64,000 nucleotides of DNA, taken from assembly GCA_046760505.1 (NCBI GenBank), contig JBHIEG010000006.1, positions 20,924 to 84,923 of the forward strand. Direction: 5' to 3'. Position numbers and translations under genes: made by a program. Below, one piece after another: positions 28,263 to 54,844 of the stretch; positions within the stretch are counted from its first letter, which is position 1, and each line of letters opens with the position of its first letter. The notes under the pieces are model-generated. The model was not told the origin of the DNA, ran no database searches, and saw nothing but the letters and a program-made list of their open reading frames with translations. This stretch comes from Candidatus Hydrothermarchaeota archaeon (GTDB lineage Archaea; CAYFZR01).

Positions 28263-28263
28263 C

Positions 28264-35033: not shown

Positions 35034-35035
35034 AT

Positions 35036-36130: not shown

Positions 36131-36135
36131 CTTAC

Positions 36136-36567: not shown

Positions 36568-36576
36568 TTTACCACC

Positions 36577-37476: not shown

Positions 37477-37487
37477 GTGATCACTTG

Positions 37488-38351: not shown

Positions 38352-38505
38352 TGTAGGTTATCTCAGGAATGTTTTATATGTTTTTGTGGGCAGGATGATG
38401 CTGGCAGAATGAAAATACCTTTTCTCTTCGAATTCAATTATTAAGTGATGGAAGATTATTTCAAGCGCTCTGCATTAGTTTTAAATAATAAAAAGGAGAA
38501 AATGG

Positions 38506-38919
38506 TTACTTTACTTCTGCAGAAGCCATTGCACCTTCTTTACATGTTACGTCTACGACATCACCTGATTGTAACGTGTATCCAGCAGTCGGCATCTTGC
38601 CTATTCTGCTAGCATTCAAAGTGTCGAATTTGTAAGTAAAATTCCCATTTACATAAAGCCTCACATCGCTTGCGTTGGCGCTTCCTGTATTCATTACTTT
38701 AACGTAGTTTTTATTTTTCTTTGCCTCTAAGATGAGTAAGTTCACATCGAATTGCGCAGTGGCTCCGCTCACCTTAGCAGTTGTTCCCGTGGTAAAACTT
38801 GTCACCCAGACATAGGCTATTCCCGCTGCTACTACTGCTATAGCTATCAATAGGATTACTGCTATTACTGGCGAGACACCTTTCTCCTCCTTCCTTATCC
38901 CTTGGAACGTTTTTTTCAC
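38506..38919 (-). CDS. Archaeal type IV pilin (probable major pilin)
   Basis: EKG/VSPVIAVILLIAIAVVAAG; has its own upstream TATA-like element and downstream T-tract. Confidence 0.92.
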   Translation of the reverse strand: MKKTFQGIRKEEKGVSPVIAVILLIAIAVVAAGIAYVWVTSFTTGTTAKVSGATAQFDVNLLILEAKKNKNYVKVMNTGSANASDVRLYVNGNFTYKFDTLNASRIGKMPTAGYTLQSGDVVDVTCKEGAMASAEVK

Positions 38920-39062
38920 CCCCAGTAAATATTCTATTTTAATCTGTTATAGTAGTACTCATATTTTATAAGCGTTTTGTCAACAAAAACGATTTATTGT
39001 CAGACAAATTTGTGTCAGACGATTATCTGTCCTTTAAATCCATTAATATTTATGATAATTAA

Positions 39063-39509
39063 TTATATCTCAAGCAATCCATGCAACTCGCAAAACTCCT
39101 TTGAGCCAAAAACATCGATCAGATTTTTGACCTTCAGGAATTCGGAATCGTTGGATATAACACATTCCGAACCAGATTCTATTGCTGTTGCGGTTATTAT
39201 TGCATATGGAAGTCTTATCTTCTGCTTTGCTCTAATCTCACCTGCTCTGTCAGCAATTCTTACATTTGGCGGAAAGACTTCAAATTGAGGTGATGTAATT
39301 ATGTATGAGAAAAAAGCATTCTTCTCCTGAATCAAACCTTGCTGATTATAACCAGCCGAGAGCTCTGTTAGTACGATCGTGGACAATATCGCGGTGAGAG
39401 ATCCACCATCTATTGCATCCAATATCTTAGAAGAATAAGCCATGAACTCTGGCTCTTTGTTGATAACATTCAAAAATATATTTGTATCTACTGTAACCTT
39501 CATATCCAC
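39063..39509 (-). CDS. vapC: PIN-domain VapC toxin (one catalytic Asp replaced by Tyr)
   Basis: VDTN, TEL, LPYAII (normally LPDAII), SNDSEF. Confidence 0.88.
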   Translation of the reverse strand: MDMKVTVDTNIFLNVINKEPEFMAYSSKILDAIDGGSLTAILSTIVLTELSAGYNQQGLIQEKNAFFSYIITSPQFEVFPPNVRIADRAGEIRAKQKIRLPYAIITATAIESGSECVISNDSEFLKVKNLIDVFGSKEFCELHGLLEI

Positions 39510-39733
39510 TCTTCTCTAACCTTCTTTTGGAAATCTAGGCTACTCACACTCCATTTTTTTTGACTCATTAAAATACTCGATAGTTTTTCGGTGGTTTCTT
39601 TTCTTAACACTATTTTATCACCGTGTTTTTCAAATACTACTTTGTCTCCGGCCTTAAGTCCTAAGAGATCTCTCAGATCTTTTGGTAGTGTTATCTGTCC
39701 CTTTTTTGATAATTTAGAAATTGCAACAATCAT
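39500..39733 (-). CDS. AbrB/MazE-type antitoxin
   Basis: KLSKKGQITLPKDLRDLLGLKAGDKV; overlaps vapC. Confidence 0.9.
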   Translation of the reverse strand: MIVAISKLSKKGQITLPKDLRDLLGLKAGDKVVFEKHGDKIVLRKETTEKLSSILMSQKKWSVSSLDFQKKVREEWI

Positions 39734-39788
39734 CTAGGACACCTTACAAAATGGTAAGAATTTCCTTACTTATTAATCTTACTATTCT

Positions 39789-40601
39789 TTATACTAGAAA
39801 CTGAAATACGAGATATCCTATCAAGGTTAAAATCACGGAATGTTTTAATCCCGCGAGAATAGACCCTTCACCAACTTCTCCACATACCAAGCCCCCGAAT
39901 ACGGCTTGAATGAGGGCAAGATGATAGAATAGCGTTCTATATCCTTCAGGTGATATGGGCATCCTTAAGAATGCAAACGAGCCCATGCCCCCCATCGCTG
40001 GAACCATCGTTTTCTGAATAGCAACAACAATTGCGATGAATACAAAGAAGGTTAGATAAATAATGACTATGTATGGTCGCATAGCCCCTTTTCTCTCCTC
40101 CTCTATTTCCATTATCATCTGAGCATCCCTTGCCGCGGAGTCCAGTATATCAGATATGTCTCCTCCAGCTCTGTTGGCCTCTATTATTAGAGAGCATACG
40201 CGACTCACAATTCTGCTATTGCTCCTCTCAGAGAACTTCTCTAGCACCTCTTCAAATGGAACTCCCCAAGAAATTTGTGTGGCCATTTTCTTTACCTCGT
40301 CAGTTAAAGCGCCATAATCAGATTTTGCAAGTGTGTAGAAAGCCATTGAAAGGGGTACACCGGCACGGCTGGCTTCAACCATATCTCTTAAAAAATCAGG
40401 AAATCTTTTTTCTATTTTTCTGGTCCTTATATCCTCAAGTAGTTTTGCTAACATTAGTGGAAATCCAGAGAAAACTAGTGCGAGCACAAATACGGTATCA
40501 AATGTCTTTGTATCCCCATATAACCTATAACCTCCACTGACCAGTGCAACAAATATTAACATTCCTATCGCAACGAATGCGGCTATCTTTCTCCTTTTCA
40601 T
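39789..40601 (-). CDS. Type II/IV secretion system F-domain membrane protein (TadC/FlaJ-like)
   Basis: FPDFLRDM, DYGALT, ANRAGG, GLKHS. Confidence 0.9.
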   Translation of the reverse strand: MKRRKIAAFVAIGMLIFVALVSGGYRLYGDTKTFDTVFVLALVFSGFPLMLAKLLEDIRTRKIEKRFPDFLRDMVEASRAGVPLSMAFYTLAKSDYGALTDEVKKMATQISWGVPFEEVLEKFSERSNSRIVSRVCSLIIEANRAGGDISDILDSAARDAQMIMEIEEERKGAMRPYIVIIYLTFFVFIAIVVAIQKTMVPAMGGMGSFAFLRMPISPEGYRTLFYHLALIQAVFGGLVCGEVGEGSILAGLKHSVILTLIGYLVFQFLV

Positions 40602-40603
40602 GG

Positions 40604-41467
40604 TTACACCTTGGGCTTAAGAGAATCTACTATTATCAGAAACATTATGCATGCAATCGGAATGAAGAGATAGATCATCATCTGGAAAAATATATTCACC
40701 GGAATTTTTAAGGTCCAGCCACCCATCATAGTCATAACTGCTACCATAACTATGAGAAAAACCGGAGCAACAACAAATAAGGTTATGTATATCTCGGTCA
40801 TCAATCCAAGAGATTCCGTGAACTCTCTCTGTATTTTTCTATGCTCCCATGTGAGCTCTCTTGCAACTTCTCTTAAAAAAATCTTTAAATCACCACTAGA
40901 TTTTATCGTGTTATTTATTCCCATCAGTATCTCCTTTAGTCGAGAAGATGGACTTCTCTTGCAGGCATTCTCTAGTGCTGTAGATAGATCCTCTCCAAAT
41001 ATCTCGATATCTCTTGTAATGGTCTTGGCTTCTTCTGATACCTCTCCATACAACTCAGATAGACCTAAAGCCTTTAATATAACGGCTGGTGGCATTCCTG
41101 CACCAGCCATTATTGATATGTAGTTCACTGCATATGGTAAATTCATGTCAATGTCTAATCTTCTTTCATACGCCTTGAAAAATGGGTATATATAAACTAG
41201 ACCAGATATAAACAAAGAGATAAGAAAAGAAGCGACTAAAGTAAATCCGAGAGGAAAGTAACCAAGTTTTATAATGGTAAGGCGATAAAAAAATGCAAAA
41301 GAAATTAAGAAAGGTATGAAGAATGATAGAAAGAGGATTCCAAGATAACTGCCCAGCGTGGTTTTAATGTTTGATTCATGCAGAGATTCATGAAGTCCCT
41401 CAAAGAGATCATAAAAATGAGATTCAAAAAAGGAGCCAATTCTCCTGTACATTACATATACCGCCAA
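40604..41467 (-). CDS. Type II/IV secretion system F-domain membrane protein (TadC/FlaJ-like)
   Basis: LPYAVNY, YGEVSEE, SPS, SSGDL. Confidence 0.9.
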   Translation of the reverse strand: MAVYVMYRRIGSFFESHFYDLFEGLHESLHESNIKTTLGSYLGILFLSFFIPFLISFAFFYRLTIIKLGYFPLGFTLVASFLISLFISGLVYIYPFFKAYERRLDIDMNLPYAVNYISIMAGAGMPPAVILKALGLSELYGEVSEEAKTITRDIEIFGEDLSTALENACKRSPSSRLKEILMGINNTIKSSGDLKIFLREVARELTWEHRKIQREFTESLGLMTEIYITLFVVAPVFLIVMVAVMTMMGGWTLKIPVNIFFQMMIYLFIPIACIMFLIIVDSLKPKV

Positions 41468-43092
41468 ACGTCTTCTAAAACTGTTTCAGGAGACTTATAA
41501 TATGTTGCAACTACTCTGGCGACATCGGTAAATTTTCTTATTCCTCTATTCTTCATCCATTCTAGAATATTCTTCCTGTTTTCTAATTCTCTCCTCATCT
41601 CCTCCTCGCTTATGTTCATATCAGCCATGATTCTTTCCATCAGATACGATCTGCTCGAGACAAAGTGGTGTTTATCTGAGTGGGGATCCCATTTGAAGGT
41701 ATCATTTGTAATGAGTTCTTGAGTGTTTGGATCCAACCCCACTATTTCGGTGGTTCCCTTTATTCTTCGCACATATTTTCCTTTTACTCTGCTTCTAACC
41801 TGCATTACTATTATATCTAGGTTTTGCAATAGTACTCTTGGAATATTTATGGGTGGAGACTCCAATCTGTGGATAACTCCTTGGGGAGAATCTGCATGGA
41901 TTGTGCTAAGCGCCAGATGCCCTGTTGCCATTGCCTGGAAGAGTGTATTCGCCTCAACGCCTCTTACTTCTCCGACAATTATGTAATCAGGTCTTTGTCT
42001 TAAGGCAGTTTTCAGCAAATCGAACATATCTATTTCGCCGTATCTCCTTCCGTTGGTTAAGGCTGGTCCAAAGCCACTTCTCGTTACCTGGGGGATCCAG
42101 TTTGAGTGAGGTAAACTCAGCTCCGGAGTATCCTCTATGGTAACGATCTTTAACTCTGGTGGAATAAATAGAGATAAAGCGTTTAGGGTAGTAGTCTTCC
42201 CAGCAGCAATTCCTCCCGCTACTAGCACGGAGGCATCGTGCTCTATAGCAAGCCATAAATAGGCGAGAAGCTCCGGAGAAGCGGTTCCGAGTTCTATTAG
42301 ATCTGGGGGAGTCATTGGATCTCCCCTGAATTTCCTTATCGTAAATGTAGATCCCTTTCTAGAGATTTCCTTGCCATATGTTAACTGAACCCTGCTCCCG
42401 TCAGGAAGAGTTCCCTCAAGCAAAGGCTCAGCAACTGAGATATGCTTGCCACTTCTTTGTGCAATCTTGATGATGAAGGAATCCAACTCATCTGAGTCTG
42501 AAAACTGCAGGTTGGTTCTCATTGAGCCGAACATTCGATGATAAATGTAGATTGGAATGTTAGCGCCATCACAACTTATATCCTCAATATTAACGTCGTT
42601 CATCAAAGGCTCTATGATTTCTAAGCCAGCGAAGTCTCTAATGATGTAATACTTTATTTTTTCTCTGGAATTTTCGCTCAATCTGATTCTGTGTTTCTTT
42701 ACAACTTCATCTACCTTCTCGCATAGGTATTTGTCTAATTCTTCGACAGAAAAGAAATCCAGTTCCAGTTCGTCTATCAATGTCTCTTTAATCTTCTTCA
42801 GAGCTTTTTCTTCATCTTCATTTAACTCGGGTTGTTTGACCTCGTATATCAATTCGTGAGACTCTCTGTCGTAATGTATGTTTGCGAAGGCGTATGGTTC
42901 TATCAAGGGATAAGTGGTATCTATTTTTGTCATATAATTCTCATTTTTTGTTATTGCAGGTAAAACAGGCGCCTTCCTTTCCTTTTGTTCTTTTATTTGA
43001 TTGAGAAGATTATTTAGTTTACTCTTGCTTAATTCAGTTTCTTTCTTTTTTATTTTTTCTAAAATTTCCTGGGCTCTCTCTTCGATATCCAT
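41452..43092 (-). CDS. Type IV pilus assembly ATPase (FlaI/VirB11 family)
   Basis: IEDISCDG, GGIAAGKTT, LRQRPDYIIVGEVRG, ATGH, TIHA. Confidence 0.95.
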   Translation of the reverse strand: MDIEERAQEILEKIKKKETELSKSKLNNLLNQIKEQKERKAPVLPAITKNENYMTKIDTTYPLIEPYAFANIHYDRESHELIYEVKQPELNEDEEKALKKIKETLIDELELDFFSVEELDKYLCEKVDEVVKKHRIRLSENSREKIKYYIIRDFAGLEIIEPLMNDVNIEDISCDGANIPIYIYHRMFGSMRTNLQFSDSDELDSFIIKIAQRSGKHISVAEPLLEGTLPDGSRVQLTYGKEISRKGSTFTIRKFRGDPMTPPDLIELGTASPELLAYLWLAIEHDASVLVAGGIAAGKTTTLNALSLFIPPELKIVTIEDTPELSLPHSNWIPQVTRSGFGPALTNGRRYGEIDMFDLLKTALRQRPDYIIVGEVRGVEANTLFQAMATGHLALSTIHADSPQGVIHRLESPPINIPRVLLQNLDIIVMQVRSRVKGKYVRRIKGTTEIVGLDPNTQELITNDTFKWDPHSDKHHFVSSRSYLMERIMADMNISEEEMRRELENRKNILEWMKNRGIRKFTDVARVVATYYKSPETVLEDVWRYM

Positions 43093-43250
43093 ATGGGATA
43101 CTCCGTAGCCTAATGCTTCTCTTTGCTTAGAGTGTTGTCGATGATTGATTATATTTCTTTCGATTACAAATTAGTTTTCTAACCAGCATATTTGGACAAG
43201 GGAAAAATATTTTATCAGAAAGGGAACAATTTCTTTCTTGAGGTAACCTG

Positions 43251-44303
43251 ATGGAAGAAAAGGTGGAGAGATACAGTCTTTCTATAAATCCTTTTGGTTA
43301 TTTAGCAAGCGAGTCCTTGGATAACATCAAGGATATATGTGTTTATCAAGATGTTGATTACTCTTTGTTGGAGTTACTGGAAGAAGTAAAGAGCGGTGAG
43401 AGTAGAGTATTTAGTATAAACGGCCCTTTTGGGACAGGAAAGACGTTACGACTAAAATTTATTCTAGAAAACTATGATGATACTGGAATTTATACAAAGA
43501 TTCCGATAGGAGATTTTAAGTCTGTTATGGCGCATATTCTAAAAGAAATAAGGATTACAAAGGCAAAGCGCAGCTTCATTAAAAGGATACTCCGTAGATT
43601 TTACTCTTCAGTAGACCCTTCTGAAGTAGAGAAAGATCCCATAGAACTATCAAATATAATACTAGAGGAAGTAAGCGGGTGTGTTTTTCTAATAGATGAG
43701 TTAGAAAATATTTCTAAGATGAAAGATGATGAAATAGATAATTTTTTCCAGGTATTAAAAGAAATGGTAAGCAATATCCCTCCTAAAACCATGTTAGGTA
43801 TTTCATGCACGACTTCTGAATACTTTTTATTTAAAAATAAGTACTTCGCCTTCTTTCAGCGCATAGACAAAGAATTCTCACTTAAAGATCTAACAGATGA
43901 AGAAGCAATAGAACTGGTAAAAAAAAGATTGCAAACAAACAGAATTCTAAAAGATTTAGATCCATTGTATCCTTTTTCAGAGGGTGCAATAGCAGAGGCA
44001 AATAACTTAACATCTGGAAATCCAAGAAATCTTCTTAAATTACTGCAAGAAGCCTTAAGAGTTGGTATAAGGGATGAACTTCCAAATATAGAAGTCCCAG
44101 TAATAAGAGAAGTTTACAGCAAGGTTTTCGAGCCATACAAAACGAAATTGGAAATAGAACTTGAGAAAATAGAAAAGGAATTTCTTGAACTCTCCGCTAA
44201 ATACGATGCCGGAGAGATTGATTTTGAAGTTTATCAGTCAAAAATAAGAGATCTTGAGGTTAGACTGTTAAAAATAGAGAGGGAGGTAAAAGAGACAAAA
44301 TAA
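43251..44303 (+). CDS. AAA+ family P-loop ATPase with C-terminal SHOCT-like helix
   Basis: GPFGTGKT, FLIDE, YPF, GNPR; YDAGEIDFEVY tail. Confidence 0.8.
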   Translation: MEEKVERYSLSINPFGYLASESLDNIKDICVYQDVDYSLLELLEEVKSGESRVFSINGPFGTGKTLRLKFILENYDDTGIYTKIPIGDFKSVMAHILKEIRITKAKRSFIKRILRRFYSSVDPSEVEKDPIELSNIILEEVSGCVFLIDELENISKMKDDEIDNFFQVLKEMVSNIPPKTMLGISCTTSEYFLFKNKYFAFFQRIDKEFSLKDLTDEEAIELVKKRLQTNRILKDLDPLYPFSEGAIAEANNLTSGNPRNLLKLLQEALRVGIRDELPNIEVPVIREVYSKVFEPYKTKLEIELEKIEKEFLELSAKYDAGEIDFEVYQSKIRDLEVRLLKIEREVKETK

Positions 44304-44305
44304 AT

Positions 44306-44650
44306 TCATTCATACTCGATACTTTTGCTTTCCTTTATGAGTTCATACCAGTTTTTTAGCAGGACTATGAAAAGTATAATGAAGATGGATTCGCTCAGTT
44401 CGTATAGATAATAAGTCTCGAAGTGAAATAATTCTTTGAATGTGCCTATCGTTTCATGTAAGACGAAGATGACACCTATGAGAAAGATATATGACCATGT
44501 TTTACTCAAAAAACCTGCCTTTAAAAATGCCTTTGCCTTGAGCATATCAGGATCTAGGCTCTCAGATTCTTTTCTTATTATTACCAATATCGCTAAAACG
44601 ACCAAACCTATGATGAAATTTATGATTTCCAATATCGCTTCTGCATGCAT
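44306..44650 (-). CDS. Small three-TM membrane protein
   Basis: Three hydrophobic helices. Confidence 0.65.
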   Translation of the reverse strand: MHAEAILEIINFIIGLVVLAILVIIRKESESLDPDMLKAKAFLKAGFLSKTWSYIFLIGVIFVLHETIGTFKELFHFETYYLYELSESIFIILFIVLLKNWYELIKESKSIEYE

Positions 44651-44950
44651 CTTTTACCCGCGTCTTCATGTTATTTGTTCAAATTATCACTCACTTTTAA
44701 ATCATCACTCGATTGTTTATAATAAATTTTGAAATATTTATAGTATTATGATCGATGAAATCGTAATTTTTGCCAAAAAAGAAATATTTATGTGAATTCT
44801 ATCAATTCTCATCCTTCGATCACTGAGAAGTAAACATGGTATCGTATTCTTCTCTAGCGCGTAAACATGAACTTCAGCGAGATACAAAACCCCTGCATTG
44901 ATTTCTGCTTACCAAATGAAAAAATTTTGATGCTTAATTATCCTATTTAA

Positions 44951-45319
44951 TTACCCTATTATTCTTTTTATCTTTTCCGCAGCCTTAGACATCTCGACAA
45001 GAATTAAACCCAATCCTGCGTCAGGACCTGTCATTACGACAAGTAGAGCCTTTGGACCTGCCCCGGTAGATATCACCTTTGTCTCTGGAGACTCTATTAA
45101 TATGCGCTCTGGTACACCTTTCTTTAACTCGCTAATGGCTGTTTCTGCAGCTCCGGTCATTGTGGCAGTCATAGCAGCGAAAGTTCCTTTTTCAATGCCC
45201 TCTGGTATATCTGATGCCATCAATAAGCCATCTCTAGTAACTACTGCAGAGGCCTCGATATCTCCGACTTTTTTAAGTTCCTTGAGAATCACTTCTAGAT
45301 CTTCCTTTAGAGTAGACAC
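44951..45319 (-). CDS. Roadblock/LC7 (MglB-like) protein
   Basis: SAVVTRDGLLMAS, FAAMTA, GLGLIL; GTG start. Confidence 0.93.
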   Translation of the reverse strand: MSTLKEDLEVILKELKKVGDIEASAVVTRDGLLMASDIPEGIEKGTFAAMTATMTGAAETAISELKKGVPERILIESPETKVISTGAGPKALLVVMTGPDAGLGLILVEMSKAAEKIKRIIG

Positions 45320-46487
45320 CCCACTCACCCTCGAATATGAGATCAATTAGTATTTCGAAAGCATTTATAACTTTATCGCTTTTAGTTGCAACACATGGAA
45401 CTAAAGGCACTTCTTCGCTGATTTTCATGATTTTTCTTATTTCTTCGACATCTAATGCGTCAGCAAGGTCCTGTTTATTAGCAACTATAACGAGAGGCAG
45501 TCCATGGGTTTTTGTGATTTCTATCATGTGTTTAGCCCTCTTAAAAGTTTCTGGCTTGCTAGAATCAATAACCAAGAAAACTCCAATGGTTTCTCCTGCT
45601 ATCCGTCTCAATATAGGGTCAAATCTCTCCTGACCCGGAGTACCGAATATATCAGCAGTATATCCCTTATGATCTACATATCCGTGATCTAATGCCACTG
45701 TAGTGCCCAGTCTATCTACGGAAACCGCCTTTTTGGAGATTGTATGGATGAATGTACTCTTCCCCGCGTTGTACGGTCCAGTTACAAGAATCTTTGGAAT
45801 GTAAGCCTTTACTCCACCTGGGCGCAAAACCTTGAACAGTATAGATTTTTCCCTTATCTCGCACCATTTCACATTCGTTACAGCATAATATTGTCCGATA
45901 ATGACTCTTTGCGCAATGCCACCAACGGAAACAACCGCATCGAAGGTTGTAAGCAATTTATCAAATACAAAACTCTCATATGGCCATCTTGTAAAGTTGA
46001 AAACACCATAATCGTCTTTCAACATTATTCTCTTTGTAAGATACTCGATAAATTCTAACGTTTTTCTTTCTCCACAGAGATCCATCACACTAGAAAGAGA
46101 TCCAAAAGTTATTATGCTTCCATCTCCAAGATCATCGCATGCCTTTTCCAAAACTCTCTTATAACATTCGATATTTTCAGGATCTTCTACATGGTATTCA
46201 CTCTCAGGTCTTAAACCAACCAAATTAGAATAACCATCTATAAATATCAAATTCTCAAATCTTTCAACATCCCAACCATATTCCAAAAACTCTTTTTTTA
46301 CCGTATTTGGAGGACCAGTGGTAGTTAAGTAAATACCCTTCATTCCTTGTTCAAGATTTGAGGCGAAGGTCTGCATACCGAATACGTCGCCTATTACTCC
46401 GGGCTCTATAAGGTAGAGTAGGCTTTTTCCTGCGGGTATTCCTCCTCCCAATAACTCATCTAGTCTTGGTATGTTTGTGGTGATCAT
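45273..46487 (-). CDS. Degenerate KaiC-like domain fused to MglA/CvnD-like small GTPase
   Basis: N-terminal TNIPRLDELLGGGIP with degenerate Walker A (IEPGVIGD); C-terminal GPYNAGKST, TTVALDHG, FGTPGQERF, NKQD. Confidence 0.9.
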   Translation of the reverse strand: MITTNIPRLDELLGGGIPAGKSLLYLIEPGVIGDVFGMQTFASNLEQGMKGIYLTTTGPPNTVKKEFLEYGWDVERFENLIFIDGYSNLVGLRPESEYHVEDPENIECYKRVLEKACDDLGDGSIITFGSLSSVMDLCGERKTLEFIEYLTKRIMLKDDYGVFNFTRWPYESFVFDKLLTTFDAVVSVGGIAQRVIIGQYYAVTNVKWCEIREKSILFKVLRPGGVKAYIPKILVTGPYNAGKSTFIHTISKKAVSVDRLGTTVALDHGYVDHKGYTADIFGTPGQERFDPILRRIAGETIGVFLVIDSSKPETFKRAKHMIEITKTHGLPLVIVANKQDLADALDVEEIRKIMKISEEVPLVPCVATKSDKVINAFEILIDLIFEGEWGVYSKGRSRSDSQGT

Positions 46488-46683
46488 TTTATCTCTTGAA
46501 GCTTATTTGTGCAGATCATTATAAGTGAGTTTTCATTTTGAAATTAAAGCGTGTTCTTTGAGTATTTATGTTTGAGAAATCTCATTTATAACCATACAAA
46601 TTAGTTACGCATTTGGTAAAATTTTTTACACGATTTTATCAAAAACCAAACTCTCTCAAAGAATGGAAAATCTTAATCTTAAG

Positions 46684-47349
46684 TCAAATCACTTTGATCA
46701 TTGAGGTTTCTATGCGATATCTAAATTTATCATTTACGAATCCCTTTAATAACAATTCTTCGCCTTTAAAATGCATTAATCCCTGCATGAGTTGCTGTAT
46801 AGCGTTTACTTCCTCTGGCTTGTGTATGCTTTCGTTCATGACGAAGAAGCATATTCCACCAACCGCCTTTATTCTTCCCGTGAAAACGTGTAGAAAACGA
46901 AATACTGGTTTGATGCTTGAGTACATGAGAAGCGTGGATACCGAGTCTAACACTACTCTTATTCTCTTTATCCCAGACTTGCGCCATAGATCTTCAATAT
47001 GATTGGACGTGCTAGCCAAAATCATCCCTAAATCAAGAGGTCCCGATACACAAGAGACATTTTCTATATCTCTGGGACAATTCTCATCAAATGTTAACGA
47101 ATAACAATCAACTATTCTCAAGTTTTCTAGTGAGGAGGAAAACCTGCTTATTTCTTCAACTACCTTCTTCGCGGTATCATTAGTTGATATGTAGATGACT
47201 CCTTCATTATTTTTAAGCGATGATCCGCAACATTGGTGACAGAATAGTTTGTGTCCTGAATATGCGTCTCCCAGGACCATTATCATGCATTCTGGCTTTA
47301 TTTTGACATCTATCCCCTCTAATCCAATGGAATATTCTTCATCTTTCAT
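46684..47349 (-). CDS. KaiC/RAD55-like protein with degenerate Walker A
   Basis: GDAYSGHK, IVDCYS, VLDSVSTLLMY. Confidence 0.8.
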   Translation of the reverse strand: MKDEEYSIGLEGIDVKIKPECMIMVLGDAYSGHKLFCHQCCGSSLKNNEGVIYISTNDTAKKVVEEISRFSSSLENLRIVDCYSLTFDENCPRDIENVSCVSGPLDLGMILASTSNHIEDLWRKSGIKRIRVVLDSVSTLLMYSSIKPVFRFLHVFTGRIKAVGGICFFVMNESIHKPEEVNAIQQLMQGLMHFKGEELLLKGFVNDKFRYRIETSMIKVI

Positions 47350-47639
47350 ACCAATCTTACCTTTAATATTCACTTAAAAATTTAAATCTTACGCAAAGAC
47401 GGTAAAAGTTCTTATTAACCTCTTGAGTCTCAATTTTTATGCAACTATAGCAGGTATATGTGCTTTCTTGCTACGGAGAACCGCAAATTTAGACTAGTCA
47501 TACTCTTTTTAAGAAATTTGGCAAGATTTCGATCACTTGCTTTATTTGAAGCTTAGATATTTATATTTTGAACAATCAAGGAACAAAAAATGTCAGTAGC
47601 CTAGGAAAATTTATTAAATAAAGTCAACAATTAGAGAAT

Positions 47640-49109
47640 ATGGTGAGTAAAAACAATCTAATTAAGCTGTTGGTCATATCAGTTGTTTTAGTTAACATTA
47701 CCGTAATTAGCGGTTGTGTTAAAGAAAAACCACCAACTGAAGAAGTCGTTGGGGAAAAACCCGCGGAAGAATTGTTAGAGGAAAAACCTAAAGAAGAAAT
47801 AACGCCTCCAACCACTCCTGTTCCGGAAACTCCTTCTGCTCCTGCACCTGCTCCATCGCCTAAAACAACTGCTCCTCCTGTAAAGAAAGGTCCTGAACCT
47901 CTCGAAATACCCTTCGAGGCATCACACTTCGGATTTATGCACCCAGAGAGGTCTTTATCTGAGGCAGCGGAGTTGAAAGTACACTGGGCAAGACCTCATC
48001 CAGGACCCTTTCTCTGGGATTCGATTGAGCCTGAAAAAGGTAGATTCGATTTTTCTTCTCCGGATAGAGAGGTGAGACTTCTCCAAGAATACGATTTCAC
48101 AATGATAGCCACAATCTGGCCCTATGCCGATTGGGATCAAGAGAGTTGTAGGAAAAGACTTTCATTTGAAAAAATCAGAGAGTTCAGGGAACTTGGCTAC
48201 TATCGTCAGATGCCCTGTGATATGGAAGCCTACAAGAATTTTGTAAAAACCGTAGTGGAGCGCTACGATGGCGATGGCATTGACGACATGCCGGGACTGA
48301 AGTATCCTGTGAAATACTGGGAAGTGATTAATGAACCGTCAATGAAAGAAGATTTGGTTTTCTTCTATGGCTCTCCAGAAGAGTACTTTGAAGTCTTGAA
48401 GGCGACCTACGAAGCAGTAAAAGAGGCAGATCCAGAAGCAAAAGTTCTTAACGGTGGAATCGCAGGCTTCGACTACGAGTCCAGAAATTTCTGGCAGAAG
48501 GTCATTGACCTCGGGGGGGCTAAATACTTTGATATATTCAACCATCATTCCATCAGCGGACCTGAAGATCTCCATGTCCCAGAGGCAAAGAGTTTCATGA
48601 GAAAAAACAATATAAGAAAGCCCCACTGGATACCTGAGGTAGAATTCAGTGCTTGGGGTCTTAAGAGGGAGAGGCTCACTCCTGAAGAATGGGCGAATGT
48701 AATCGTAAGGTCTTACATTTATTCCTTTGGCGAGGGAGTAGATAAGCTCTTCTATGTTGGGCTGGACGAAAGTCCAGGAGATCCTGAGAGCTGGTTATTA
48801 TACACTGAATCAGAAAAGAAACCCCATAGAGCAAAAGAGGGTCCAAAGAAAAGACAAGCCACCTTCTACGCGTTTAAGACCATGGTAGAAAAGATCGACT
48901 ATTTTACTGCGGTTAGAAAACTCGGGAAAGGGAAATACAAATTTACTGTAAAAGGAAAGCCAGTTTATGTTCTCTGGGCTCCGGGACCGGTACCTGCTGA
49001 GATAACTGGAACCGTCCTCGTAACAAACATTAGGGGTTATACCAGAAAAATTGATGCAACGAGCATAACACTAACAGAAAGCCCAATTTTTGTTGAGCCT
49101 CTCCATTGA
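47640..49109 (+). CDS. Lipoprotein glycoside hydrolase (clan GH-A, GH39-like)
   Basis: Lipobox ISGC; Pro/Thr linker; WEVINEP acid/base; WIPE nucleophile region; YDGDG. Confidence 0.78.
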   Translation: MVSKNNLIKLLVISVVLVNITVISGCVKEKPPTEEVVGEKPAEELLEEKPKEEITPPTTPVPETPSAPAPAPSPKTTAPPVKKGPEPLEIPFEASHFGFMHPERSLSEAAELKVHWARPHPGPFLWDSIEPEKGRFDFSSPDREVRLLQEYDFTMIATIWPYADWDQESCRKRLSFEKIREFRELGYYRQMPCDMEAYKNFVKTVVERYDGDGIDDMPGLKYPVKYWEVINEPSMKEDLVFFYGSPEEYFEVLKATYEAVKEADPEAKVLNGGIAGFDYESRNFWQKVIDLGGAKYFDIFNHHSISGPEDLHVPEAKSFMRKNNIRKPHWIPEVEFSAWGLKRERLTPEEWANVIVRSYIYSFGEGVDKLFYVGLDESPGDPESWLLYTESEKKPHRAKEGPKKRQATFYAFKTMVEKIDYFTAVRKLGKGKYKFTVKGKPVYVLWAPGPVPAEITGTVLVTNIRGYTRKIDATSITLTESPIFVEPLH

Positions 49110-49121
49110 AATTATCACTAT

Positions 49122-49859
49122 CTACTCTGCGTACTCCCCCTTAGGGTATACCACAAGACCTCGAGAAGTTATTTCTAGAGGATATCTTCTCATTCCATGC
49201 CTAGCTTCTCTCATTTTTCGAATCACAATACTTCTTCTCAGTTGTCCACCGCTCTCGGTTAGATACAGGAGTATTAAACCTCTCGTTATGAATTCTTCGA
49301 CTCCATATCTGCTCAATCTTCCCGTTCCTTCGATGGATTCGGATGTTAAAATTGAAGTGCAGTTGCTTTCAAGAAGTATGGTTGTAAATTTGTGGATTGC
49401 TCTTCTTATTTCTGCTTCGCTCTTCAACTGTAGACCTAAAGCAGGAATAGAGTCTATTGCAATTCTTTTTGCTCCAATTTCTTCTATTGTTTCGTAAATT
49501 TTAACCGCAAGTGCATCCAAATCGAATCCAGCTGGGGTAACTACTCTCTCTCTCGTGGGTATTCCGGCTCTTGCTAGAGAAGCATCAATAATAACAAATT
49601 TACCGTCTTCCTCTAATTTTTTAACGTCCCATCCGAATACCTGCATTTCCCTTCTTACATCATCAGGCCTCTCTTCAAGAGATACATATATACTTGGCTC
49701 ATTAAACTTAGATGCACCGGCATATAAAAACTGGAAGCAAAATAGGGTCTTTCCCGTACCTGGACCACCTGAAACTAATACAACCGTATTTCTCGGGAAA
49801 CCGCCATCCAATATCTCATCCAATCCCGGAATGCCTGATTTGACTCTATCTTCTCTCAA
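49122..49859 (-). CDS. KaiC-like ATPase (intact)
   Basis: SGIPGLDEILDGGFP, GGPGTGKT, SLEE, IDSI, RKMR. Confidence 0.93.
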   Translation of the reverse strand: MREDRVKSGIPGLDEILDGGFPRNTVVLVSGGPGTGKTLFCFQFLYAGASKFNEPSIYVSLEERPDDVRREMQVFGWDVKKLEEDGKFVIIDASLARAGIPTRERVVTPAGFDLDALAVKIYETIEEIGAKRIAIDSIPALGLQLKSEAEIRRAIHKFTTILLESNCTSILTSESIEGTGRLSRYGVEEFITRGLILLYLTESGGQLRRSIVIRKMREARHGMRRYPLEITSRGLVVYPKGEYAE

Positions 49860-49945
49860 ACCTTAACACCGAATTATTGTTTAATGTTTATATTTGTTCT
49901 TTGATGTTTATAATTCTTATTTTGATAAATTTTGGCTTACCTAAA

Positions 49946-50701
49946 CTACACTATTCTTGTGGCAGTATCTAATACAATACCCTTCTGGGTTATTCGATAG
50001 GGTACAATTTTGCTGCTCGGAACTATATGTAACATATTGGTTATGCATATACTTCTCTCAAGTTCATTGCCTCTCTCACGAACCCTTAATTCTATTATTC
50101 CATCTGAGACGTGCTCTATCGTACTCAATGTAGATTCATCATGCATTCCTTTTTCCAGTGATACGAGATAAACGCACTTGTATATTCTCACAAATGCCTT
50201 TATCCCTTCCAAAACCTCTTTTACCTCTTTCAATGAGTGCAGCCAGAGAATGTCAGAGAGGGAATCTATCACACCAATATGACTTCCCTTGGATGCGAGT
50301 TCATCATTCTCTAGAACCCCCAATCTCAGCATGTTTAAGATGCTTGTATCCCAGGATCTGGATACAGAACTCAAAGAAGGTGTTTTTTTGTGAGTTTCTC
50401 CAAGAACCCATTTTATTCTTGAAGAAAAAACATCTATGAATGTCAGATTGCCGGACTTTTCAAATTCTTCAACTTCCCATCCAAACCTACTCATGTTAGA
50501 TTTGATATCCTCTGAGGAACACCAAGTGACAAAATATATTCCTGATCCTCCTTGGGAGAGAGCGTTATAGAGAAACTGTTGACATATGATGGAATGACCG
50601 GTACCTGGATTACCAACTAGGAGAATAAGACTACCCTTGGGATATCCTCCTTCTAGAAGCTCATTTAACCCTGAAATTCCTGTATCTACGATATCAGTCA
50701 T
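49946..50701 (-). CDS. KaiC-like protein with degenerate Walker A
   Basis: TGISGLNELLEGGYP, GNPGTGHS (K to H), IDSL, lacks the EE motif. Confidence 0.88.
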   Translation of the reverse strand: MTDIVDTGISGLNELLEGGYPKGSLILLVGNPGTGHSIICQQFLYNALSQGGSGIYFVTWCSSEDIKSNMSRFGWEVEEFEKSGNLTFIDVFSSRIKWVLGETHKKTPSLSSVSRSWDTSILNMLRLGVLENDELASKGSHIGVIDSLSDILWLHSLKEVKEVLEGIKAFVRIYKCVYLVSLEKGMHDESTLSTIEHVSDGIIELRVRERGNELERSICITNMLHIVPSSKIVPYRITQKGIVLDTATRIV

Positions 50702-50844
50702 TTCTACAATTTTTACTATTAAACTCTCTGGTATAAAAATCTTCTATAGCGAGAATTCTGCAAAATTGTATAGGAAATATTTATGTTGTTGATTTTTTAT
50801 AGTTACGATGTCATTATACATTATACTAATAAGGAGGAGAAAAA

Positions 50845-52248
50845 ATGGCAAACATCCCTCAAGAGATAGTGAATATGTTAAACCTCTTGAGAGGATCCTC
50901 TCTAATGGTTAAGGGCGCTCCAGGAACTGGAAAGACCATATTCTCGCTCGAACTTCTGAAAGAACTCGGCGAGAACTACAGTGGAATATATGTCTCAACC
51001 CGAGTTCAACCAAGAGACCTGTATATAATGTTTCCTTGGTTAAATGGTGTTGTTTTTGAAGAAAATATAATAGATGCTTCCTGTTCTTTTGTATCCAAAT
51101 CTCAAGAATTAAATAAGGTTATACGCTATAGTAGCCAGCCTGATTTTGTTAAAGCAACATATGAAAAGATAGACGGACTTAAAAAACCAGCGTTATTAGT
51201 GATTGATAGTTGGGATGCAGTTTTCAGTGTGGTAAGAGAATCGAACGAAGAAGAACTCGCCAGAACAATGATAGACCTAGCAAAAGAGACCGAGACGAAT
51301 CTAATTATGGTCGTAGAAAAAGAAAAAAAGACAGGGTTAGATCACTTGGTAGACGGTATCGTATTATTAAAATGGGAAGAAAAAGATGGGGAGTGGTATA
51401 GAGAGATCTATCTAGATAAGTTGAGAGGAACTGAAATTCTCCAGCACAAATATCTTTTCACACTGAATGGAGGTAGATTCAGGCATTTTGAACCATTTAA
51501 ACGAAAATTTCCAAGAACTAGAAGAAAGTTTAAACCCATCATAGACTCGAGATCGCATTTCTCGTCTGGAAATAGATATTTAGACGAGATACTGGGTGGA
51601 GGCTTTCCAAGGGGAAGTTATGTTTTTCTTGAGACTGGAGAAAACGTGGATTACTATGCATTCGCGAATATTATCAACCTAACAGTTGCCAATTTTATTA
51701 CTCAGGGCAGAGGAGTGTTAGGAATTCCTAGGGTAGGAACAAGTCCGGGAATGATCAAGTATTTTGCACACCTCTTTGGTTTTGAAGATGGACTAAAAAG
51801 CCTTTTGAGGATGGTTAGGGAAGAAGATTCGTCAGGCAAAGAAACAGAAGATTTTGTTCTTCCCTATACTACTGAAACTCTGAAAGAAGATTTCAGGAAA
51901 ATTGATTCTGAAATTAGAAGATTGAGAGAGGAAACAGGGGAACCGGTGCTAAAAATAGTGGCTTATGATCACATGGAGTCTCTCTTTGGAGTGAAAGCAT
52001 TGCCAGAAATGATAAGTCTCGAAGCTCAAGAGATAGCGGACAGTAACGCATTAGCAATTGCTACCGGAACCCACAGCACGCCAGAAACCAATAAAAAACT
52101 TGCTGATACCGCTAATATCCATTTAAAAATTATAGAGTTAAATGGAGCCATGGTTCTTTTTGGATTAAAACCAAAAACAGGATTGTACAATATTGAGATT
52201 GATATTTCAAAAGGCTATCCAGATATAGTACTGACTCCGATCAGATGA
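50845..52248 (+). CDS. GvpD-like double KaiC-domain ATPase
   Basis: GAPGTGKT, YVSTRV, IDSWDA, DKLRG, YLFTLNGGRF; second domain SGNRYLDEILGGGF with degenerate P-loop. Confidence 0.85.
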   Translation: MANIPQEIVNMLNLLRGSSLMVKGAPGTGKTIFSLELLKELGENYSGIYVSTRVQPRDLYIMFPWLNGVVFEENIIDASCSFVSKSQELNKVIRYSSQPDFVKATYEKIDGLKKPALLVIDSWDAVFSVVRESNEEELARTMIDLAKETETNLIMVVEKEKKTGLDHLVDGIVLLKWEEKDGEWYREIYLDKLRGTEILQHKYLFTLNGGRFRHFEPFKRKFPRTRRKFKPIIDSRSHFSSGNRYLDEILGGGFPRGSYVFLETGENVDYYAFANIINLTVANFITQGRGVLGIPRVGTSPGMIKYFAHLFGFEDGLKSLLRMVREEDSSGKETEDFVLPYTTETLKEDFRKIDSEIRRLREETGEPVLKIVAYDHMESLFGVKALPEMISLEAQEIADSNALAIATGTHSTPETNKKLADTANIHLKIIELNGAMVLFGLKPKTGLYNIEIDISKGYPDIVLTPIR

Positions 52249-52252
52249 TCAC

Positions 52253-52636
52253 ATGGCTAAAAAAATACTACTTGTGGATGATGCCGAATTTATGCGCGAA
52301 ATGCTTGAGGAAATGTTGGATCCATCAGAGTACGAGATCATAGAGCATGTAACAACCGGAAGAGAGGCTATAAATACGTACAGAAAATTAATGGAGGAAG
52401 GAAATAGACCGGATATAGTTGCCATAGACATCGTTTTGCCTGAGATAGATGGTATTACAGTTATAAGGGAAATAAAAAAATTAGATCCCAATGCAAAAAT
52501 TTTTGTAATCAGTGCATTGAGCGCTCCTGGTCCAATAAATGAGTCTATTGAGGCTGGAGCCTCAGATTATATCATCAAGCCTTTTACAACTAAGAAATTA
52601 ATCAAAACACTAGAAAATCTGCTGAAAGAGAGGTAA
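52253..52636 (+). CDS. Stand-alone response regulator receiver (CheY-like)
   Basis: VDD, DIVLPEIDG, SA, YIIKPF. Confidence 0.93.
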   Translation: MAKKILLVDDAEFMREMLEEMLDPSEYEIIEHVTTGREAINTYRKLMEEGNRPDIVAIDIVLPEIDGITVIREIKKLDPNAKIFVISALSAPGPINESIEAGASDYIIKPFTTKKLIKTLENLLKER

Positions 52637-52641
52637 CCGGG

Positions 52642-54735
52642 ATGGATGAAGTTAGAAAGACGGGAATCGATATTTTAGGTGATGTCCCTTGGGGTACGCA
52701 TTTCTGTCAATTTTATCTTACAAAAGAAGATTTAATCGACATTTTGGTACCTTATTTCAAAACAGGATTGGAAAACAATGAATTCTGCATGTGGATTACC
52801 TCAGAGCCTTTAACAGTTGAGGAAGCAAAAGAATCATTAAAAAAGGTTGTAAAGAATCTAGAGGACTATATTAAAAAAGGACAGATAGAGATACTCCATT
52901 CGAGTGAGTGGTACACCAAATCAGGAAAATTCGAGCCTGAAAAGGTCTTGCAAGGTTGGGTTGATAAAGAGAATCAGGCTTTGAAAAAAGGATTTGATGG
53001 TCTGCGCCTTACGGGTAATACTTTTTGGCTTGAGAAAGAAGATTGGAAGGGTTTCACTGAGTATGAGTCGCTTGTAAACAATGTCATCGGCAAACATAAA
53101 ATGATTGCCATTTGTTCCTATTCTCTTGATAAGTGTGGGGCATCCGAAGTAATTGACGTGGTGAACAATCATCAATTTGCTCTCATTAAACGAGAGGGTA
53201 AGTGGGAACTTATTGAAAGCTCCGAACGTAAGAGAGCATGGGAAATGCTTCGAGAAACCGAAGAACGCTATAGAGAGCTTGTGGAACTCTGTCCTGATCC
53301 AATTGGCGTTCATAGCGAAGGGAAGCTCGTCTTTATAAACACCGCCGGGGCAAAACTTCTTGGAGCATCGAGTCCAGAGGAACTCATTGGAAAATCAATA
53401 ATGGATACCGTGCACCCGGATTATCGCAAAATCGTTAAGGAAAGAGTTCAAAAGATGATAGAAGAAGGAAAGAGAGTCCCATTAATCGAGGAAAAGTTCT
53501 TAAGGTTAGATGGTACTGAAGTAGATGTGGAAACCACCGCGATCCCTATCTCATATAAGGGCAAGCCAGCTGTCTTGGTTATCTCAAGAGACATTACAGA
53601 GCGAAAGCGGGTAGAGAAAGAACTTAAAAAACAGAAAGAATTCCTCGAATCGATATTCGACGCTGTTACCGATCACCTCACGGTAATCGATAGGAATTTC
53701 AAGATAGTCGCCATGAATAAGAGTCATGCCGCAAGTTTTAATAAAAAACCTGAAGATTTCATAGGAAAGTATTGCTATGAGGAGTTTCATGGAATTAAAC
53801 AAGTCTGTGAAGATTGTGTGGCAAAAGAATCTTTTGAAACTGGAAATCCATCCTATGGACTAAAATCTGGAATCAGAAAAGATGGCTCACGATACTGGGT
53901 TGAAATCAATACATTTCCAGTAAAAGATGAGAATGGACAAGTTAATTCAGTAATAGAATACGTTAAAGACATTACAGAAAAGAAAAAGGTTGAGGAAGAG
54001 CTAAAAGAATCCTATGAAAAATTACAGGTTGCCTACGATGAATTAAAAGAATTGGATAGGATTAAATCAGACTTCATTAATATTGCTTCTCATGAACTTA
54101 GATCTCCTCTATCTGCTATAATGGGATATCTAACTCTTATGGAAACCAAAACAGAACTCGACGAGAAACAAAAGCATTATTTAGATATTATATTTAGAAA
54201 TGCAAGTCTCTTGAACGAATTAATTTACAAGATACTGGAACTCTCACTCATAGAATCCGGGAAGATTGAACTTTTTAAAAGGAAATCATCAATTCTAAAG
54301 ATAACAAAGGAAATCATTGAGGACCTAGAAATAAAAGCCAAAGAAAAAGAACAGGAGATTACTCTAGAATTTTCAGAAAAAGTACCCATGATAAAAATCG
54401 ATAGAGAAAGAATAAAAGAGGTTTTGACCAATCTGATATCAAATGCCATTAAATTTACACCAGAAGGAGGAAAAATTAAAGTAAATATAGAAAATAGGAA
54501 AGAAGATGTACTCGTATCTGTAAGCGACAACGGACCAGGAATTTCGGAAGAGGACCAGAAAAGGATCTTCGATCGTTTCTATAAGGTCGAGAGCTCTCTT
54601 ACAAGAAGTGTAGAGGGCACAGGTCTTGGACTGTCGATCGCAAAAGGATTGGTAGAACTGCATGGAGGAAAAATCTGGGTTGAGAGCGAACTGGGAAAAG
54701 GAAGCACCTTTTACTTTACCATACCAAAAACATAA
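52642..54735 (+). CDS. Soluble sensor histidine kinase, MEDS-PAS-PAS-HisKA-HATPase
   Basis: WGTHFCQFY and LRLTGN (MEDS); two PAS/PAC; SHELRSPL, NLISNAIKFT, DNGPG, GTGLGL. Confidence 0.95.
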   Translation: MDEVRKTGIDILGDVPWGTHFCQFYLTKEDLIDILVPYFKTGLENNEFCMWITSEPLTVEEAKESLKKVVKNLEDYIKKGQIEILHSSEWYTKSGKFEPEKVLQGWVDKENQALKKGFDGLRLTGNTFWLEKEDWKGFTEYESLVNNVIGKHKMIAICSYSLDKCGASEVIDVVNNHQFALIKREGKWELIESSERKRAWEMLRETEERYRELVELCPDPIGVHSEGKLVFINTAGAKLLGASSPEELIGKSIMDTVHPDYRKIVKERVQKMIEEGKRVPLIEEKFLRLDGTEVDVETTAIPISYKGKPAVLVISRDITERKRVEKELKKQKEFLESIFDAVTDHLTVIDRNFKIVAMNKSHAASFNKKPEDFIGKYCYEEFHGIKQVCEDCVAKESFETGNPSYGLKSGIRKDGSRYWVEINTFPVKDENGQVNSVIEYVKDITEKKKVEEELKESYEKLQVAYDELKELDRIKSDFINIASHELRSPLSAIMGYLTLMETKTELDEKQKHYLDIIFRNASLLNELIYKILELSLIESGKIELFKRKSSILKITKEIIEDLEIKAKEKEQEITLEFSEKVPMIKIDRERIKEVLTNLISNAIKFTPEGGKIKVNIENRKEDVLVSVSDNGPGISEEDQKRIFDRFYKVESSLTRSVEGTGLGLSIAKGLVELHGGKIWVESELGKGSTFYFTIPKT

Positions 54736-54772
54736 TTTTGGTTTATAAGAGATCTACAGTTTCGAGAAAAGG

Positions 54773-54844
54773 TGCCCCGGCCGGGACTCGAACCCGAGTC
54801 GCAGGCTCCGCAGGCCTGCAGGATATCCACTACCCTACCGGGGC
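54773..54844 (-). tRNA. tRNA-Arg(GCG)
   Basis: Reverse complement GCCCCGG...CAGGC-CTGCGGA-GCCTG...GGTTCGAGTCC...CCGGGGC-A. Confidence 0.93.

Follow-up and report, generated by a model that had tools for sequence, protein, structure and literature searches.

An archaeal MglA-type GTPase fused to an inactivated KaiC domain, with Roadblock and KaiC-like genes as conserved neighbors

Ras-like GTPases that work with Roadblock partners are central to cell polarity in bacteria, where MglA and MglB form such a pair, and the same pairing of folds recurs in the Rag/Ragulator signaling of eukaryotes. How switches of this kind are regulated and wired in archaea is, to our knowledge, largely untested. One locus of a Candidatus Hydrothermarchaeota archaeon (GCA_046760505.1, contig JBHIEG010000006.1) poses this question in a specific form, for it encodes a single protein in which an MglA-type GTPase continues directly from a KaiC domain without ATPase residues. 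What would a GTPase switch do on such a scaffold, and which proteins accompany it? Positions below refer to the 64,000-nucleotide stretch of this contig that was analyzed (the window). The genes and domains concerned are as follows.

46684..47373, minus strand: DUF7504 KaiC-like gene (PF24336), 229 amino acids when read from GTG 47373, directly upstream of the fusion gene
45273..46487, minus strand: dead-KaiC::GTPase fusion gene, an open reading frame (ORF) of 404 amino acids with an ATG start and with Pfam and NCBIfam matches
45813..46487, minus strand: KaiC/RecA-like domain of the fusion, residues 1-225, complete, from profile, Foldseek and BLASTP comparisons
45321..45812, minus strand: small GTPase domain of the fusion, residues 226-389, from its G1-G4 motifs and domain matches
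45276..45320, minus strand: C-terminal tail of the fusion, residues 390-404, lineage-specific, overlying the Roadblock start in a different frame
45332-45324, minus strand: Shine-Dalgarno-like GAGGGTGAG, 4 nucleotides before GTG 45319 and within the GTPase coding frame, read from the sequence
44951..45319, minus strand: Roadblock/LC7 (MglB-like) gene (PF03259), 122 amino acids from GTG 45319

The dead-KaiC::GTPase fusion, a Roadblock gene and a KaiC-like gene form a conserved three-gene core across many archaeal phyla. On balance, we consider it probable that 46684-47373, 45273-46487 and 44951-45319 represent one copy of a conserved archaeal signaling module, in which a GTPase switch set by the Roadblock protein is tethered through the dead KaiC domain to the DUF7504 protein. 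The new aspect would be an MglA/MglB-type switch placed on a dead-KaiC scaffold, together with a conserved KaiC-like neighbor. No KaiC-GTPase fusion was described in the titles, abstracts and parts of texts covered by our literature search, which did not extend to the supplementary tables of PMC4858521 and PMC4316618 or to Makarova et al. 2017. Nor was a bench study of the fusion module found in the literature covered; the module itself is common in sequence databases. The window copy is another instance of a recurrent module; what it contributes is a local association with pilus genes and a presence that differs at the strain level. Such a module would connect two proposed archaeal signaling systems, namely KaiC hubs and MglA-type G proteins, and its three small soluble proteins are well suited to reconstitution.

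The two domains of the fusion protein

A preliminary description of this DNA, made from its letters and ORFs, had presented the gene as a KaiC domain fused to an MglA/CvnD-like GTPase that overlaps a Roadblock gene. ORF analysis and domain searches against Pfam and NCBIfam confirm this architecture. Pfam KaiC (PF06745) matches residues 3-126 of the fusion protein (E 7.2e-13; 48.9 bits, cut-off 26.6), Arf and Ras families match residues 232-384 (E 3e-15 and 4.5e-13), and the match to the NCBIfam family small_GTP (TIGR00231) has 62.9 bits (cut-off 42.5). The translation of 45273..46487 contains every motif that had been quoted, and the motifs of the fusion protein lie at residues 27-34 (IEPGVIGD), 237-244 (GPYNAGKS), 262-269 (TTVALDHG), 281-286 (FGTPGQ), and 337-340 (NKQD).

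An AlphaFold2 model of the fusion protein, built on a family alignment of 48 sequences (alignment A2, whose composition is given below), has a mean predicted local distance difference test score (pLDDT) of 90.1 and a predicted template modeling score (pTM) of 0.86. The latter value implies that the mutual position of the two domains is confident. Values of pLDDT below 50 are confined to residues 393-404, and the two domains are joined in the model without a linker, the strand at 225-236 being directly continuous between them.

The N-terminal domain is a complete KaiC/RecA fold devoid of ATPase residues. Positions 2-229 of a profile of the 48-member family can be aligned with PH0186, a KaiC-like protein from Pyrococcus (2zts; E 2e-27), and also with cyanobacterial KaiC, and Foldseek superposes the domain on PH0284 (2dr3) with a template modeling (TM) score of 0.87 and a root-mean-square deviation (rmsd) of 2.2 over 232 columns. 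The possibility that the domain might not be a KaiC/RecA fold at all was checked with the same comparisons, and the fold is present over its whole length. The earlier claim of a KaiC fold lacking the Walker A lysine is likewise borne out by the profile, Foldseek, AlphaFold2, and BLASTP alignment with the active KaiC encoded at 49122. In the BLASTP alignment, IEPGVIGD stands opposite the GGPGTGKT of that protein and departs from the Walker A pattern GxxxxGK[ST], with G33 at the position of the Lys and D34 at that of the Thr. The catalytic Glu pair that follows strand 2 is also lost, since T58-G59 is found opposite the EE of the 49122 KaiC. Finally, the Walker B Asp is G130 in the window protein, which reads FGSLS where the wider family profile and PH0186 show DS; elsewhere in alignment A2, this position is Asp in DPANN and a few other rows and Asn in Methanobacterium-type rows.

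Given that the KaiC fold is present but all three catalytic features are missing, the domain is an “inactivated KaiC” (iKaiC) in the sense of Galperin et al. 2018, who, in the available portion of that article (PMC5847659), use the term with reference to Makarova, Galperin & Koonin 2017. The pseudo-P-loop has the consensus PGVEGDVFGMQ, and P29, F36, and Q39 are conserved in at least 90% of the 48 sequences. A decaying domain would not keep these residues, and the domain therefore appears to be under selection for something other than catalysis. A second string (GGIPAGKS, residues 15-22) satisfies the regular expression for Walker A and was considered as a cryptic P-loop. It was rejected, as it precedes strand 1, belongs to a conserved GGGxPxG turn, and is not kept family-wide.

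The C-terminal domain carries intact Ras-superfamily motifs, with GPYNAGKS in agreement with the G1 pattern GxxxxGK[ST] and NKQD with the G4 pattern [NT]KxD. All 48 aligned sequences share residues G282-T-P-G-Q286, T263, and G242-K243, and T262 is conserved in at least 90%. In the accessible parts of the survey by Wuichet and Sogaard-Andersen 2014 (PMC4316618), MglA groups 2-5 are characterized by GTPGQ rather than DxxGQ in G3 and by a Thr that replaces the group 1 Arg finger in G2. Archaeal members of the family are described there as lacking the bacterial G1-G2 insertion, and group 4, for which the same parts report no conserved neighbors of the mglA genes, as nearly confined to methanogenic Euryarchaeota. 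The window GTPase has GTPGQ in G3, Thr-Thr (T262-T263) in G2, and a Roadblock gene within four genes. It also lacks a G1-G2 insertion, where a CvnD-type protein has 19 extra residues in a pairwise alignment. It differs from a single-domain small GTPase in that a KaiC-like domain of 225 residues precedes the G domain in one ORF. In its sequence, therefore, the G domain agrees with MglA groups 2-5 and archaeal group 4 in all the features examined, apart from not being a single-domain protein.

Structural comparison agrees with this assignment within limits. For a separate model of the G domain (pLDDT 86.2), the best solved match is Myxococcus xanthus MglA bound to MglB (6izw_A; E 1.3e-12, TMq 0.75). 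Close behind are the Thermus thermophilus MglA-MglB structures 3t1q_A and 3t12_A, the Asgard protein ArfR, and Arf/Arl proteins; 6h5b_A is also among the MglA-MglB structures closest to the model. A profile sequence search with the family profile gives Arl3, Arf, and Rab8 as top scorers, and the margin of MglA over Arf-like proteins is small.

A conserved three-gene core

A word-indexed search with the fusion protein returned 1775 proteins at E<=1e-3 among 7999 scored candidates. All 120 of the matches listed (of the 1775) are 386-404 amino acids long and combine PF06745 with GTPase families, and those outside the window's own cluster share 50-59% identity with the query at 94-96% query cover. 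The source names of the listed homologues are “GTP-binding protein,” “small GTP-binding protein,” “ATPase domain-containing protein,” and “hypothetical protein” only. Residues 1-225, compared with 1.84 billion cluster representatives, gave 649 matches at E<=1e-3 and 94 at E<=1e-10. Among these 94, 37 are at least 370 amino acids long and 31 contain G[TS]PGQ; another 54 are shorter than 300 amino acids and may be fragments or stand-alone forms.

Related loci were collected by a scan of genome contigs with two GTPase motif strings, which also drew loci of Actinomycetota and Chloroflexota that match residues 232 to ~385 only. The 32 loci considered here (L001-L032) span Methanosarcinales, Methanocellales, Methanoperedens, ANME-2, Archaeoglobaceae, Methanobacterium, Thermoplasmata, Hadarchaeota, Altiarchaeota, and several DPANN lineages. 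The fused form is present in L001-L030, split over two ORFs in L025, and L031 and L032 contain ORFs of 360 and 392 amino acids whose N-terminal part has no match to the dead-KaiC query. Besides the window protein, alignment A2 has 27 rows from the 120 listed proteins and 20 from the 32 loci; left out were L030 (in-frame stop), L025 (split), L027 (contig end), L001-L004, L006, L011, L028, L029, and L031.

Gene order was compared by phmmer searches of the window proteins against the stop-to-stop ORFs of the 32 loci, which are 3.1-17.2 kb long (E<1e-5). The fusion has a KaiC-like gene as its direct neighbor in 28 of the 32, although one such neighbor in L025 is the fusion's own split N-terminal part, and a same-strand Roadblock gene lies within 1 kb in 26, with the fusion at a contig edge in three of the six remaining loci. 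Both genes are present in 22 loci. Two orders recur, namely KaiC-like > fusion > Roadblock, as in the window, and Roadblock > fusion > KaiC-like, as in Methanobacterium and in ANME-2-type paralogues. The view that Roadblock partners the GTPase gene, put forward in the preliminary description, thus gains support from its recurrence near the fusion in 26 of the 32 loci.

The usual neighbor of the fusion across these loci is a DUF7504-type or other degenerate KaiC-like gene. In the window, 46684-47373 matches DUF7504 (PF24336) with E 3.7e-20 and 73.6 bits (gathering cut-off 27) and Pfam KaiC with E 1.2e-8, and ATG 47349 is a more likely start than GTG 47373. Its P-loop reads GDAYSGHK (shifted), whereas most relatives keep GK but have Glu in place of Ser/Thr (GPPMSGKE; alignment A3). 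Positions 46488-46683, between this gene and the fusion gene, are A+T-rich and hold the TATA-like strings GGTTATAAATG and CATAAATAC.

On the other side of the fusion gene, the longest form of the Roadblock ORF (44951..45346, minus strand) has 131 codons from TTG 45346 and matches Roadblock/LC7 (PF03259) with E 5.9e-14 and 52 bits against a cut-off of 23. Its in-frame starts are TTG 45346, GTG 45328, and GTG 45319, and the overlap with the fusion gene amounts to 74 nucleotides for the first and 47 for the last. Twenty-six Roadblock homologues of 110-129 amino acids align from the GTG 45319 start, and the resulting 122-amino-acid product fits homologues of 120-129 amino acids. GTG 45319 is the probable start, and the previously noted overlap of about 47 nucleotides is right for this start, given the upstream GAGGGTGAG and the length of the homologues. 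Within the Roadblock protein the pair D30-G31 is conserved: G31 is invariant and the preceding position is D in most rows, otherwise E or N. According to the available text of PMC4316618, an Asp-Gly pair is a feature of MglB proteins coupled to MglA groups 2-5.

The overlap has a simple origin. Homologous fusions end about 15 residues earlier, and their Roadblock gene begins no more than a few bases from the stop codon. The window copy has no stop at the usual place, and the frame extends for 15 codons over the Roadblock start, which produces the 47-nucleotide overlap. The tail of 15 residues is found in none of the other 47 rows of alignment A2, of which at most two extend a few residues past the common end. 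P0001, which belongs to the same cluster but comes from another contig and differs slightly in sequence, has the tail too, so that it is not an assembly error. The model predicts that the tail is disordered.

A quick maximum-likelihood tree of 67 G domains places all 49 fused domains on one side of a branch with SH-aLRT 96, and 13 bacterial and 5 stand-alone archaeal G domains on the other. This topology is compatible with a single origin of the fusion.

The genome itself (2.17 Mb in 142 contigs) carries about 20 KaiC-like genes, two stand-alone GTPases of the fusion type, and a second fusion paralogue of 376 amino acids (contig C44, 7202-8332). This paralogue belongs to a second module (locus L089, 4190-10261, minus strand) that contains DUF835, KaiC, KaiC/DUF7504, fusion, GAF-PAS-V4R sensor, Roadblock, an unassigned 240-amino-acid ORF, and a stand-alone small GTPase; KaiC, MinD/ParA, and a T2SSE pilus-type ATPase are encoded on the opposite strand. 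The sensor genes differ between the two modules, with a GAF-PAS-V4R protein in the second and none in the first, which fits a core switch with exchangeable inputs. A 171-amino-acid stand-alone GTPase of the fusion type is encoded on contig C10 (locus L090, 7155-8718), where its gene overlaps the end of an FtsZ gene (Tubulin and FtsZ_C).

What the module may do

How might these three proteins act together? By homology, the G domain would alternate between GTP and GDP states, and a Roadblock dimer would control this cycle. For M. xanthus MglB, the available part of PMC13408092 reports activity as a GTPase-activating protein (GAP) and, in recent work, behavior resembling that of guanine nucleotide exchange factors (GEFs); a GAP role has also been proposed for the conservon Roadblock protein MfpD (PMC13015309, in the portion available). 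The Roadblock protein of the window may therefore be a GAP and possibly also an exchange factor. The preliminary description had inferred a GAP role for it, which is not supported in that form, as the assignment relies on homology and the MglB of PMC13408092 shows both behaviors. The dead KaiC domain would hydrolyze nothing, and gene order suggests that it serves as a fixed scaffold that ties the switch to the DUF7504 KaiC-like protein. A mixed RecA-type assembly of the dead KaiC domain with this KaiC-like partner would be plausible. Through the DUF7504 protein, the switch would be linked to the KaiC signaling network, which is dense in this region.

The output of the switch in this genome may be the assembly or placement of type IV pili, which we regard as a best guess. 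A complete archaeal type IV pilus locus lies beside the module, with Pilin_N genes at 36136-38919, two T2SSF genes at 39789-41467, and a T2SSE ATPase gene at 41452-43092. There are seven T2SSE ATPase genes in the 2.17 Mb, and the two fusion genes are 2.2 and 4.2 kb from one; proximity of both by chance is unlikely, at a rough estimate of about 4% each under random placement. KaiC-family and Roadblock (arCOG02603) genes have been noted in archaeal pilus loci in the parts of Makarova 2016 (PMC4858521) available to us. On its other side, the module is followed by two KaiC genes, a GvpD-like gene, a receiver gene, and a MEDS-PAS-PAS histidine kinase gene.

Some neighboring genes deserve separate mention. 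The gene at 43251-44303 (plus strand) encodes an AAA/ORC-like ATPase with sub-threshold family matches only (AAA_16, and BrxD-like at E about 4e-5), and 44306-44650 (minus strand) encodes a membrane protein of 114 amino acids with no family match; both lie between the Roadblock gene and the pilus ATPase gene. The KaiC-family protein of 49946-50701 (minus strand) has GNPGTGHS, with His at the Walker A Lys position, and its gene adjoins the canonical KaiC gene at 49122 (GGPGTGKT) and the GvpD-like gene at 50845-52248.

The only other genome of the phylum in our collection is a sister genome from the same genus (G001). In this genome, no fusion was found, the best match being a stand-alone GTPase of 171 amino acids; there is no orthologue-level DUF7504 gene (114 versus 273 bits) and no fusion-type Roadblock gene (68 versus 165 and 137 bits). 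The three module genes are thus jointly present or absent in the two congeners. An orthologue of the stand-alone GTPase on contig C10 is the only GTPase of this type found in G001. At the DNA level, synteny with G001 (~80% identity) covers 16100-35098 of the window and resumes near 54940, and a stretch of ~19.7 kb at window ~35100-54770 has no DNA match in G001. It contains the pilus locus, the AAA gene, the GTPase module, a glycosidase-like gene, three KaiC-family genes, the receiver gene, and the MEDS-PAS histidine kinase gene, and its right edge abuts tRNA-Arg(gcg) at 54771-54844 (minus strand). Two different G001 contigs flank the gap, and an assembly break is therefore possible; the stretch could be a variable island or a G001 assembly gap. 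Farther to the left, about 180 bases at ~16205-16390 match more than 40 places on many sister-genome contigs at 65-92% identity, which suggests a dispersed short repeat, possibly resembling a miniature inverted-repeat transposable element.

Several facts weigh against the interpretation of the three genes as a signaling module of tethered switch and KaiC-like partner. Four of the 32 loci have no adjacent KaiC-like gene. A gap of 196 nucleotides separates the DUF7504 and fusion genes in the window, whereas the two abut or overlap in type-A relatives, and the fusion gene may accordingly have a promoter of its own. The tree of G domains was obtained by a quick search, is rooted at the midpoint, and comprises rows picked for their likeness to the fusion. 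The comparison with the sister genome involves two genomes. As to the suggested output, no relative of the window pilus ATPase was detected in any of the 32 loci, and the oppositely oriented AAA gene at 43251-44303 stands between the module and the pilus genes. Pilus linkage was accordingly rejected as a trait of the family and is kept as a local feature. Lastly, the confidently modeled packing of the two domains against each other would be just as compatible with a dead KaiC domain whose role is confined to its own chain.

This last point leads to an alternative that we judge rather unlikely, in which the dead KaiC domain acts within its own chain only, serving the G domain as an internal effector, as a lid, or as a sensor of the nucleotide state. 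In that case, the KaiC-like neighbor would exert its effect up- or downstream in some other way. The pTM of 0.86, which implies a fixed interdomain contact, the lack of a linker, and the four loci without an adjacent KaiC-like gene are all consistent with such a role. Against it stand the KaiC-like gene found directly adjacent and in fixed order in 28 of 32 loci and the joint absence of the three genes from the sister genome.

Another possibility, already raised in the preliminary description, is that the dead KaiC domain enters hetero-oligomeric rings with an active KaiC such as that of 49122, so that the GTPase sits on a KaiC hexamer with the Roadblock protein as a pure GAP. Active-looking KaiC genes are indeed found 2.6-3.5 kb away (49122, Pfam E 2e-77, and 49946), and the genome has about 20 KaiC-like genes to offer. 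The C44 module has a full KaiC gene (Pfam E 2.3e-69) as well, separated from the fusion by the adjacent KaiC/DUF7504 gene. Foldseek also superposes the fusion protein in full on two-domain KaiC, its G domain taking the position of CII, but at an rmsd of ~13. KaiC hexamers are held together by ATP at the subunit interfaces, whereas the N-terminal domain of the fusion lacks the P-loop Lys and Thr. Moreover, three of the 32 loci (L023, L026, and L029) have a KaiC whose best match is 49122 (E 1e-21 or better) directly next to the fusion, and three more (L006, L009, and L032) have one elsewhere within 8 kb; the usual neighbor is DUF7504-type or otherwise degenerate. In the window, an oppositely oriented glycosidase-like gene separates 49122 from the module. 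This arrangement is therefore quite unlikely, and the choice of 49122 as docking partner is not borne out: the KaiC-like partner conserved across phyla is the upstream DUF7504 gene at 46684-47373, adjacent in 28 of 32 loci, and not the 49122 KaiC.

A bolder version of the tethered switch is very doubtful but has wider consequences. The module could be an archaeal counterpart of the bacterial MglA/MglB/SofG polarity system, in which a mixed, catalytically silent RecA-type ring of two pseudo-ATPases, comparable to Elongator Elp4-6, places the switch at a type IV pilus motor. If this were true, the switch would decide where or when pili assemble, and GTPase control of pilus machines in archaea would have arisen on a KaiC scaffold.

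It is highly improbable that a mobile or variable island carries the module as cargo for a non-signaling role such as defense, for although window ~35100-54770 has no G001 DNA match and ends at tRNA-Arg on the right, none of the three module proteins has a PADLOC match, no integrase turned up in the scan of ORFs, the module has a wide distribution in chromosomal settings across many phyla, and the gap is flanked by two different G001 contigs, which makes an assembly break possible. A defense system was rejected on the PADLOC results, which for neighboring genes gave only weak BrxD/Cas3b and mad8 matches.

Comparison with known systems

Given the composition of the module, four groups of known systems are relevant for comparison with a tethered switch of this kind. 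The first is the MglA/MglB switch, with which the window proteins share a Ras-superfamily G domain with GTPGQ in G3 and Thr-Thr in G2, and a coupled Roadblock protein with a conserved Asp-Gly pair. They differ in the fusion of the GTPase to a dead KaiC domain, in the conserved KaiC-like third gene, and in lacking the intrinsic Arg finger of group 1 MglA.

The conservons (AGPS; CvnA-D, and Mfp of Mycobacterium) are a second point of reference, with CvnD and MfpB assigned to MglA group 2 in the portions of PMC4316618 available to us. The homologous GTPase, the TTVAxDxG and FGTPGQERF strings, and the Roadblock partner are common to both. A Streptomyces locus drawn in by our motif scan (L055) was verified as a conservon, with an HATPase_c histidine kinase, Robl_LC7, DUF742, and GTPase in this order, and the window G domain is 30% identical to its GTPase (E 2e-21), which has a 19-residue G1-G2 insertion. 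This match, and the inclusion of CvnD among groups 2-5 in the same text, agree with the earlier attribution of the TTVAxDxG/FGTPGQ signature to MglA/CvnD GTPases. However, the window module is archaeal and fused to dead KaiC, has no match to a CvnA-type histidine kinase or to DUF742 (CvnC), carries NKQD in G4 where conservon GTPases have NxFD (NEFD in L055), and lacks the extended switch I insertion. The module was therefore rejected as a conservon, on account of the missing CvnA and DUF742 and of NKQD in place of NxFD.

The KaiC family provides the other two. The single-domain archaeal KaiC-like proteins PH0186 (2zts), PH0284 (2dr3), and SSO2452 (2w0m) match the fold of the whole N-terminal domain with TM scores of 0.81-0.87 and rmsd of 2.2-3.8; PH0186 retains GTGKT and the Glu pair in the profile alignment, of which the fusion has neither. 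The archaeal iKaiC signaling proteins likewise have a KaiC fold without ATPase residues fused to a signaling domain. Their fusion partners, as named in the available portion of PMC5847659, are REC, HalOD1, and PAS, with no GTPase mentioned there, whereas the partner in the window is a GTPase. The window also shares the broader context of KaiC-family signaling, with five KaiC-family genes within 46-52 kb, a MEDS-PAS histidine kinase, and a receiver gene.

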